A stretch of DNA of 64,000 nucleotides from an uncultured Pseudomonadota bacterium (GCA_937123825.1 CAKZKQ010000402.1:922-64921), one strand, 5' to 3'. Shown: positions 62,603-63,253, counted from the stretch's first letter. Translations and numbers: made by a program. Notes: generated by a model from the sequence alone, not told the origin.

Positions 62603-63253
62603 ATGAAAACGCGCCTGACCTTGACCACGCCCACATTCTCCACCCTGCTCCAGCGCCTTGGCAGCCAGGATCACTCCTTTAGACCCCGGTACAACATCGG
62701 CTGCGGCCAGTGGCACTGGTTGGTGCGCCCGGTGCGCCATGTGCGCGGTCAGGTCGAGGTGGTGCGCTCTCTGTGGGGGTTGCCCAGCAACATGGACCGG
62801 CCGCTGTCGTACGTGACGGCGGAGTCTCTCAGCCGCCGAGGGTTGCGCAAGGTGGCGCGGTGCGTGATCCCCATCGATGGGTTTTACGGTCGTTTGGGCG
62901 ACCGGATGAAAGATCCCATCTGGTTCCATGCCCACAACGGCAGCATTTTGTGGGCGGCGGGGATCCACGGTGTGGATCGACAAGGCCGCGATGCCTTTGC
63001 GCTGATCACCTGCCAGGCCAACGCCCTGGTGGCTCAGGCCCAGGGTCGCATGCCGGTCCTGCTGACCTGGCGCGAGGCCCCCGGCTGGCTCTCCCCCACC
63101 GCCGAAGAGCCTTCCTTGCAGGCCATCATGCACCCCGAACTGACCGACTGCCTGCGGGCCCGCGAGGTCTCGGGCCGCGTCAACCACCCCGACCTGGACG
63201 ACCCGCTGTGCATCGAGGCTGAGGCCAAAGCCCAACAGCTCTCCTTCTTTTGA
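62603..63253 (+). CDS. SRAP (SOS-response-associated peptidase, YedK/HMCES-like) homolog lacking the catalytic Cys2 / Glu / His
   Basis: GAGGA RBS. Aligns along the full length of E. coli YedK (RYNIxxG, WGLxPS, ARCVIPIDGFY, ILWAAGIHG, FALITCQAN, RMPVLL..WL). The N-terminus is MKTRL rather than MCGRF. YedK E105 (FEW) corresponds to G (FYGR) and H160 (IHDRRP) to Q (AQGRMP). Confidence 0.7.
   Translation: MKTRLTLTTPTFSTLLQRLGSQDHSFRPRYNIGCGQWHWLVRPVRHVRGQVEVVRSLWGLPSNMDRPLSYVTAESLSRRGLRKVARCVIPIDGFYGRLGDRMKDPIWFHAHNGSILWAAGIHGVDRQGRDAFALITCQANALVAQAQGRMPVLLTWREAPGWLSPTAEEPSLQAIMHPELTDCLRAREVSGRVNHPDLDDPLCIEAEAKAQQLSFF

Follow-up and report, generated by a model that had tools for sequence, protein, structure and literature searches.

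Near the right-hand end of a 64,000-nucleotide stretch of DNA from an uncultured Pseudomonadota bacterium (GCA_937123825.1 CAKZKQ010000402.1:922-64921; this whole stretch is referred to as the window) lies a gene for a protein of the SRAP superfamily, the family of YedK and HMCES, in which the Cys, Glu, and His of the catalytic triad are all replaced. Judged from its substitutions, its relatives, and the nucleotide differences between closely related copies, the protein is very probably a catalytically dead yet functional SRAP that is maintained by selection. Functional accounts of SRAP proteins, both for YedK and for HMCES, all rest on the thiazolidine crosslink made by Cys2, and the founding paper of the family calls the Cys, Glu, and His "absolutely conserved" (PMC3765255). 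The small clade to which this degenerate SRAP belongs contradicts that description.

Family membership, active-site substitutions and selection

The protein is a member of the SRAP superfamily (PF02586, DUF159/YedK/HMCES) by sequence and by fold, which is BB1717-like. It matches the Pfam SRAP profile PF02586 with 80.7 bits (E value, 1.4e-22; gathering score, 27.1), and residues 12 to 195 align to profile positions 11 to 213 of 214. A sequence search alone reaches a single solved structure, 2f20. An AlphaFold2 model built from 120 homologs has a predicted local distance difference test (pLDDT) score of 92.3 and a predicted template modeling (TM) score (pTM) of 0.88, and a Foldseek comparison of this model with the PDB gives 21 significant matches with TM scores of up to 0.78 (0.76 for YedK 6nua and 0.78 for HMCES 6oeb), every one of which is an SRAP structure. 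The likeness to the YedK and HMCES SRAP domains (PDB 6nua, 6kbz, and 6oeb) therefore extends over the full length of the profile as well as the fold. The shared features are R4, the RCV.P.DGFY and RMP motifs, the equivalents of YedK T149, R162, and P164, and a hydrophobic pocket (F94, L134, and P151); the N-terminal strand R4-L-T-L-T-T-P is kept, as are two of the three phosphate anchors (T136, which is YedK T149, and R149, which is YedK R162). Unlike YedK and HMCES, the protein lacks Cys2, Glu105, His160, Asn75, Arg77, and Trp106.

These differences were read from alignments of the degenerate SRAP with Escherichia coli YedK (from NC_000913; L001:4822-5487) and with canonical relatives, and conservation was counted in 153 sequences, namely the 150 nearest representatives plus P0001 to P0003. 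Relative to YedK, Cys2 is changed to Lys, Asn75 to Tyr, Arg77 to Thr, Glu105 to Gly, Trp106 to Arg, and His160 to Gln, and R4, T149, R162, and P164 are unchanged. The substituted segments align without gaps and are anchored by E74 (YedK E79), by RCVIPIDGFY, and by RMPVLL. The Glu at the E105 position is present in 148 of the 153 sequences, the Trp at the W106 position in 150, and the His at the H160 position in 144.

The region 5' of the gene was also examined for a start codon that would supply the missing Cys. The protein begins MKTRLTLTTP, and an alternative GTG start is found at 62591, four codons 5' of the ATG at 62603. The in-frame 5' region reads TAA(62540)-K-C-S-L-H-C-R-G-F-P-G-V-T-E-V-A-V(GTG)-R-T-P-M, in which neither of the two Cys codons that follow the TAA has an ATG, GTG, or TTG before it. 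Because of this stop codon and the lack of a start codon before either Cys, no start gives an N-terminal Cys. At the place equivalent to the Shine-Dalgarno-like site of this gene (Table 1), the orthologs carry GGAGG-type sites. The initial annotation of this DNA had described a full-length SRAP homolog with Cys2 replaced, with Gly and Gln in place of the Glu and His, and with no alternative in-frame start that provides a Cys. The profile score and modeled fold bear out the first of these statements, Lys2, Gly96 (E105), and Gln147 (H160) the second and third, and the in-frame TAA and the codons after it the last. Alignment with YedK does not restore the Cys, the Glu, or the His, a result that is supported by the gap-free anchors, the orthologs, and the fold.

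In YedK, the C2A mutant forms no crosslink (PMC6821365, PMC9436759), and crosslinking is up to 1000-fold slower in E105A and E105Q and 10-fold slower in H160Q (PMC9436759, PMC6821365). Because Cys2 is lost, the degenerate SRAP is predicted to be unable to form the thiazolidine DNA-protein crosslink. Its K2, G96, and Q147 naturally combine equivalents of the changes engineered in YedK C2A, E105A/Q, and H160A/Q (PMC6821365, PMC9436759). However, the engineered proteins carry one or two changes made in the laboratory in what is otherwise an optimized DNA binder, whereas the natural changes are accompanied by the absence of R77, N75, and W106 and persist under selection. Since the catalytic residues are all replaced in this protein, annotation as an abasic-site crosslinker or as a functional "SOS response-associated peptidase" would be inappropriate.

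The identical protein is encoded in two independent assemblies, L004 (from ENA) and L005 (from Logan). L004 is nucleotide-identical to the window over the SRAP gene. L005 differs at 27 of 651 nucleotides, and all 27 differences are synonymous (dS [synonymous substitutions per synonymous site], 0.19; dN [the nonsynonymous counterpart], 0). As ~75% of sites are nonsynonymous, the chance under neutrality of 27 synonymous and 0 nonsynonymous differences is ~0.25^27, and we conclude that the gene is under strong purifying selection. Compared with the L002 ortholog, which is 59% identical, the ratio of dN to dS (omega) is ~0.2, a value that is approximate because synonymous sites are saturated. The recovery of the same protein from L004 and L005 indicates that the sequence is free of error at this gene, and the all-synonymous differences from L005 let the description of a genuine SRAP homolog stand against the possibility of a pseudogene that had been raised with it.

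The degenerate clade and its origin

Among 5.8 billion clusters, the search yielded no close relatives other than P0002 (59% identical) and P0003 (51% identical). P0129 came from a profile search of 1.84 billion representatives, and a metagenome scan that produced 53 loci added one new clade member, L092. The remaining degenerate-looking matches from the metagenome scan were rejected as truncated or frameshifted fragments. We also rejected the possibility that P0003 is N-terminally truncated, since its contig gives the true start MGERLTLTTP. The clade thus consists of five lineages, all from uncultured organisms.

Given in the order window, P0002, P0003, L092, and P0129, position 2 is K, E, G, G, and C, the E105 position is G, G, K, K, and A, and the H160 position is Q, Q, S, S, and Q. 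The N75 position, whose conserved Asn contacts the abasic site and which is placed by the E74 anchor, is Tyr70 in the window protein, N in P0002, and T, A, or H in the others; at the R77 position, the window protein has Thr, three orthologs have S, G, and G, and P0129 alone keeps the Arg. In contrast to these positions, R4-L-T-L-x-T-P-x-F, T149, R162-M-P, and the remaining scaffold are invariant across the five lineages. The clade retains 16 of the 22 positions that are ≥90% conserved in 149 canonical relatives, and complete or partial loss is confined to N75, R77, E105, W106, and H160, plus C2. At the level of these alignments, the erosion is selective, in that only active-site positions have decayed. 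The clade also has a signature of its own at Trp156, a column in which 0% of the 149 canonical relatives have Trp; L092 has this Trp as well (LLTWRD).

In a neighbor-joining tree from which L092 was left out, the window protein, P0002, P0003, and P0129 are monophyletic in 200 of 200 bootstraps, and the canonical proteins P0130 and P0131 are sister to the degenerate clade in 183 of 200. The branches of the degenerate clade, which lies inside the canonical SRAPs, are longer than those of its canonical relatives. Based on this tree, we conclude that the active site decayed a single time, in the common ancestor of a small group of Myxococcota. Because the deepest branch, P0129, keeps Cys2 and Arg77, it is likely that the Glu and His were lost first and that Cys2 and Arg77 were lost later.

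The nearest sisters of the clade, the canonical Myxococcota-type SRAPs P0130, P0131, and P0279, are 37 to 41% identical to the degenerate SRAP. They have in common with it a short loop 4-5 without W67 and W68, a TC.AN motif, a C-terminal Q[LM].L[F] tail, and a TGAAC-N6-GCAG element embedded in the promoter. Unlike the degenerate SRAP, they have MCGR, INxR, the Glu-Trp of DGFYEW, and the His of AQAH.RMP.

Other degenerate sites among the 150 nearest representatives are rare and scattered, and are seen in P0254, P0267, and a few His variants. P0254 has E to V with H to D, P0267 has C to A with H to T, P0147 has H to Y, and P0174 has H to Q. Since these four proteins, with their partly degenerate active sites, are unrelated to the degenerate clade, SRAP chemistry has been lost more than once. 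Several other seeming losses of Cys2 among the nearest representatives were rejected, as in these cases the start codon had been called at an internal Met. A literature search found no natural inactive SRAP.

DNA binding, the C-terminal tail, and a possible role at the replisome

The effect of the substitutions on binding of single-stranded DNA (ssDNA) can be compared with that of YedK mutations. Isothermal titration calorimetry of YedK showed that ssDNA binding is abolished in R77A, T149A, R162A, W67A, and W68A (PMC6821365). Binding is 17-fold weaker in N75A and 8-fold weaker in W106A, nonspecific ssDNA binding is 18-fold tighter in E105A, and H160A has little effect (PMC6821365). In the degenerate SRAP, the loss of E105 and the basic charge of the window protein (isoelectric point [pI], 9.4) point to DNA binding. 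The initial annotation had proposed that the ssDNA-binding fold is kept without the crosslinking chemistry. The fold is indeed kept, but DNA binding in the canonical mode is not assured, because R77, which is one of the three phosphate anchors, is lost, and N75 and W106 are lost too. Canonical-mode ssDNA binding by the degenerate SRAP is therefore best regarded as uncertain.

The protein ends in Q-L-S-F-F. The bacterial β-clamp-binding consensus is a C-terminal QL[S/D]LF (PMC9690074), and QLSFF matches this consensus at four of five positions and at the extreme C terminus, although the match is one of sequence only. The form A-x-Q-L-(S/N)-(L/F)-(L/F) ends all five clade members, and the linker before it is variable. 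The pLDDT of the model drops to ~70 at the QLSFF tail. Thus, the degenerate SRAP is like bacterial β-clamp binders (PMC9690074) in having a terminal QLSFF (QLSLL or QLNLL in orthologs) on a flexible tail, and it is unlike their consensus in that position 4 or 5 deviates. We defined the tail motif as Q[LMIV]x[LFMI][FLIVM] within the last 12 residues, and found it in 54 of the 153 related SRAPs, whereas in the rest of these proteins it occurs in 12 of 2,713 windows of 12 residues. In a second set, 45 of 120 SRAPs have the motif, compared with 0.7% expected from tail composition. The enrichment in related SRAPs is ~50-fold over the 0.4 to 0.7% that is expected. In about one-third of this SRAP subfamily, the last five residues are of the QLxL[FL] type (for example, P0131, ..AQLALF; P0132, ..RQLPLL; P0138, ..DQLELF; and P0280, ..QQSLF). 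Among searchable papers, we found none that links SRAP proteins to the β clamp. HMCES has a C-terminal PCNA-interacting protein (PIP) box for PCNA, and the subfamily tail motif would be a bacterial counterpart of this HMCES-PCNA link.

When the intergenic region of the window is compared with that of L002, a single conserved block is seen, consisting of TGAAC-N6-GCAG followed by T-rich sequence and GGGG. The 17-mer of L002 (TTGAACTTTTGTGCAGT) recurs unchanged 5' of the canonical sister gene in L089, an identity whose chance is ~1e-5 for two 350-nucleotide (nt) regions. In L089, the 17-mer lies between TTGACT (-35) and TATATT (-10) and is followed by a perfect GAAC-N4-GTTC palindrome. Comparable elements are carried by L086, L091, and L092, and in L092 the element, CTGCTCAAATTTTCAT, comes after a TTGACA hexamer. 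In the 64-kb window, TGAAC-N7-CAG has only two matches, which are 31 nt apart and just 5' of the SRAP gene. The LexA box of Myxococcus xanthus is CTRHAMRYBYGTTCAGS, and the CTG-N7-GTTCA spacing of the element equals that of this box (PMC9705874). We consider this quasi-palindromic element (CTG-N7-GTTCA / GAAC-N4-GTTC-like) to be a candidate LexA box of a Myxococcota lineage, present in the promoters of degenerate and canonical SRAPs, which suggests that ancestral, probably SOS-type, control has been retained.

Based on the tail, the promoter element, and the retained fold, we favor, with moderate confidence, a noncovalent role for the dead SRAP at the replisome or in the damage response, exerted through the clamp-type tail. 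The protein would be expressed from a promoter that retains the LexA-box-like operator of the canonical sisters, and its C-terminal QLS[LF][LF] tail would tether it to the β sliding clamp. There, or at sites of DNA damage, it would act noncovalently, either by binding ssDNA or lesions reversibly or by occupying a clamp or partner surface, and it would leave no covalent adduct that needs later removal. Several observations weigh against this proposal. Short motifs are the basis for proposing clamp binding, LexA control, and DNA binding alike. The losses of R77, N75, and W106 count against canonical ssDNA binding, and the basic charge of the window protein is not clade-wide, as the pI is 6.4 for L092 and 6.7 for P0129. 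A degenerate M. xanthus LexA matrix is not discriminating, with 126 matches of ≥13 of 17 positions in the window, and the exact shared elements were relied on in its place. Compared with the canonical sisters, the window and L002 genes have poorer -35 and -10 hexamers, and the flanks of the gene are without repair or translesion-synthesis genes: no gene for LexA, for a translesion-synthesis polymerase, or for ImuB-C adjoins the degenerate SRAP, whose neighbors are the genes for MVP and a DUF2330 protein.

The loss of R77, N75, and W106, all of which contact DNA in YedK, can also be read to mean that the degenerate SRAP is a pure protein-protein adaptor or competitor that does not bind DNA and that occupies the β-clamp cleft or a translesion-polymerase surface under damage, so that the access of polymerases or of canonical SRAP would be modulated. 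The conserved clamp-motif tail is compatible with such an adaptor, a PolY-binding subunit role has been proposed for SRAP-like proteins (PMC12926913), and W156, an invariant residue peculiar to the clade, could point to a new interface. The degenerate SRAP also lacks the W67/W68 loop, but this is not diagnostic, because the canonical sisters lack the loop too. We regard a pure adaptor as unlikely, since the clade shows no variation at T149, R162, and R4, three residues through which YedK contacts DNA, and since no polymerase gene is adjacent.

The clade has lost the triad and yet stays under strong purifying selection, and the fold must therefore have a noncovalent activity on which selection acts. 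A more speculative possibility is that a noncovalent "reader" function at the replisome is widespread for the SRAP fold and that this clade has isolated it from the crosslinking chemistry. The degenerate SRAP is a natural separation-of-function allele for finding such an activity, be it reversible binding of ssDNA or lesions, occupation of the clamp, or contact with a partner. Its significance is limited by the fact that the clade is tiny and uncultured. It is also tempered by the fact that catalytically dead offshoots are common in enzyme families.

Possible alternative chemistry, the MVP neighbor, and other features of the window

A third possibility is that the degenerate SRAP has acquired new chemistry, in which the Lys2 ε-amine or the N-terminal amine forms a reversible Schiff base or acts as a lyase at apurinic/apyrimidinic (AP) sites, as YedK C2A does. 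YedK C2A forms a Schiff base on its N-terminal amine and has lyase activity (PMC9436759), PDB 8d2m is among the fold matches, and the window protein has Lys at position 2. However, position 2 is variable, being K, E, G, G, or C across the five lineages, and Glu105, which is needed for the Schiff base and the lyase, is G, G, K, K, or A, with His160 also lost. By the methionine aminopeptidase rule, Lys or Glu at position 2 would keep Met1, so the α-amine should be blocked. In YedK, AP-site ring opening requires E105 and H160 (PMC9436759, PMC6821365), and compared with C2A, the C2A/E105Q double mutant has 25-fold lower lyase activity and ~8-fold lower Schiff-base formation (PMC9436759). We infer that Schiff-base or lyase chemistry is at best negligible in the degenerate SRAP and that AP-site ring opening is very poor, and we consider new chemistry of this kind to be very improbable.

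The gene that precedes the SRAP gene encodes a homolog of MVP, and the two genes are divergent and 398 bp apart. This arrangement had been pointed out in the initial annotation and is confirmed by the open reading frames and the Pfam matches. It could mean that the dead SRAP is a partner, cargo, or nucleic-acid- or protein-binding accessory subunit of a bacterial MVP particle, and prokaryotic vaults would then have their first described accessory component. The divergent pair is kept between the window lineage and L002 even though the MVPs are 72% and the SRAPs 59% identical and synonymous sites are saturated, which is the observation that speaks for such a link. On the other hand, the pair recurs in L002 only: none of 80 MVP loci in GTDB representative genomes has an SRAP open reading frame within 6 kb, there is no MVP within 8 kb of the L092 SRAP (on a 43-kb contig), and the canonical sisters P0130, P0131, and P0279 do not adjoin MVP. 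Furthermore, the MVP-SRAP intergenic regions of the window and L002 share no element beyond the SRAP-proximal promoter. Because of the 80 MVP loci, L092, and the canonical sisters that are without the pair, we interpret the adjacency as inherited synteny in one sub-lineage. It is lineage-specific and probably incidental, and MVP is probably not a functional partner of the SRAP; we give little credence to a vault-linked function.

The least credible alternative, a decaying pseudogene or a sequencing or annotation artefact, could draw on the loss of every catalytic residue and on the accelerated branch (mean distance to canonical relatives, 1.3 to 1.4, versus 0.9 to 1.07), but it is refuted at the sequence level by intact, full-length open reading frames with good Shine-Dalgarno sites in five lineages, by the 27 synonymous and 0 nonsynonymous differences from L005 and the omega of ~0.2 to L002, by the same protein in the ENA and Logan assemblies, and by the confident AlphaFold2 model.

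The positions of the features discussed above are collected in Table 1.

Table 1. Features of the degenerate SRAP gene and its 5' neighbor, given as positions in the window unless a locus is named
Feature	Position	Strand	Basis or remark
MVP homolog, 841 amino acids, Pfam MVP_shoulder + Vault_3 (PF11978 + PF17795)	59679..62204	-	Divergent neighbor
Operator-like element 1, (T)GTGAACAATAGAGCAG = CTG-N7-GTTCA on the other strand, LexA-box-like	62504..62520	.	Conserved with L002
Operator-like element 2, CTGTAAAAATGTTCATT	62537..62553	.	13/17 positions match M. xanthus consensus
Shine-Dalgarno-like GAGGA	62593..62597	+	5 nt 5' of ATG 62603; read from sequence
Coding sequence, degenerate SRAP-domain protein, 216 amino acids plus stop	62603..63253	+	Open reading frame, Pfam, AlphaFold2, Foldseek
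Codon 2, AAA = Lys, crosslinking Cys2 position	62606..62608	+	Alignments; orthologs E (P0002), G (L090, L092), C (P0129)
Codons 70-72, Y-V-T for canonical N-A-R (YedK Asn75, Arg77)	62810..62818	+	Gap-free alignment, E74 anchor
Codons 96-97, G-R for canonical E-W (YedK Glu105, Trp106)	62888..62893	+	Alignment
Codon 147, CAG = Gln for His160	63041..63043	+	Alignment; adjoining R149-M-P (YedK R162, P164) kept
Codon 156, Trp, invariant in degenerate clade	63068..63070	+	Clade-signature scan
Pentapeptide Q-L-S-F-F, β-clamp-binding-motif-like	63236..63250	+	Tail form shared by all five clade members
Element sites elsewhere	L002:2891-2907; L089:1521-1564; L086 about 7925-7960; L091:43-58; L092:7937-7952		

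Other searches of the gene and its surroundings gave little. No second SRAP is present within the 64-kb window, NCBIfam has no match for the degenerate SRAP protein, Rfam finds nothing in the window, and scans for sigma-70 promoters and terminators gave results at chance level. PADLOC has no match for the SRAP or the MVP protein, and we therefore rejected the possibility that the degenerate SRAP is a known defense component. A phage collection contains only distant SPbeta-type SRAPs that are ~28% identical, and there is no sign of a mobile origin.

The gene downstream of the SRAP gene (63464 to 64000, + strand) runs past the end of the window and encodes a DUF2330 protein with a signal-like N-terminal segment (Pfam, 100.9 bits). 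This protein is 94% identical in strain L004, compared with 100% for the SRAP protein. In L092, a 624-amino-acid protein with an Endonuclease/Exonuclease/phosphatase (EEP) domain is encoded at L092:2753-4624 (+ strand), ~3.4 kb 5' of the degenerate SRAP. The EEP family includes AP endonucleases, and the proximity in L092 may be coincidental.

MVP homologs are widespread in Myxococcota (bioRxiv 10.1101/872010). The MVP protein of the window has >6,500 relatives in the protein database, and those that carry names come from Myxococcota metagenome-assembled genomes (MAGs), which places the source of the window among uncultured Myxococcota. In a scan of genome contigs with the MVP profile, the best match was 65% identical. 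Several genomes have two MVP loci; for example, L036 and L043 are from one MAG, and L070 and L079 are from one MAG. To the right of about 58.67 kb, the window and the contig of the close strain L004 are 99% identical, and colinearity is lost to the left (at about 58478 to 58672). What remains are only short inverted matches of 96 bp (window 59510 to 59605), 28 bp (58979 to 59006), and 28 bp (59478 to 59505). This pattern points to a breakpoint downstream of MVP between the window and L004, which a rearrangement or an insertion would explain.

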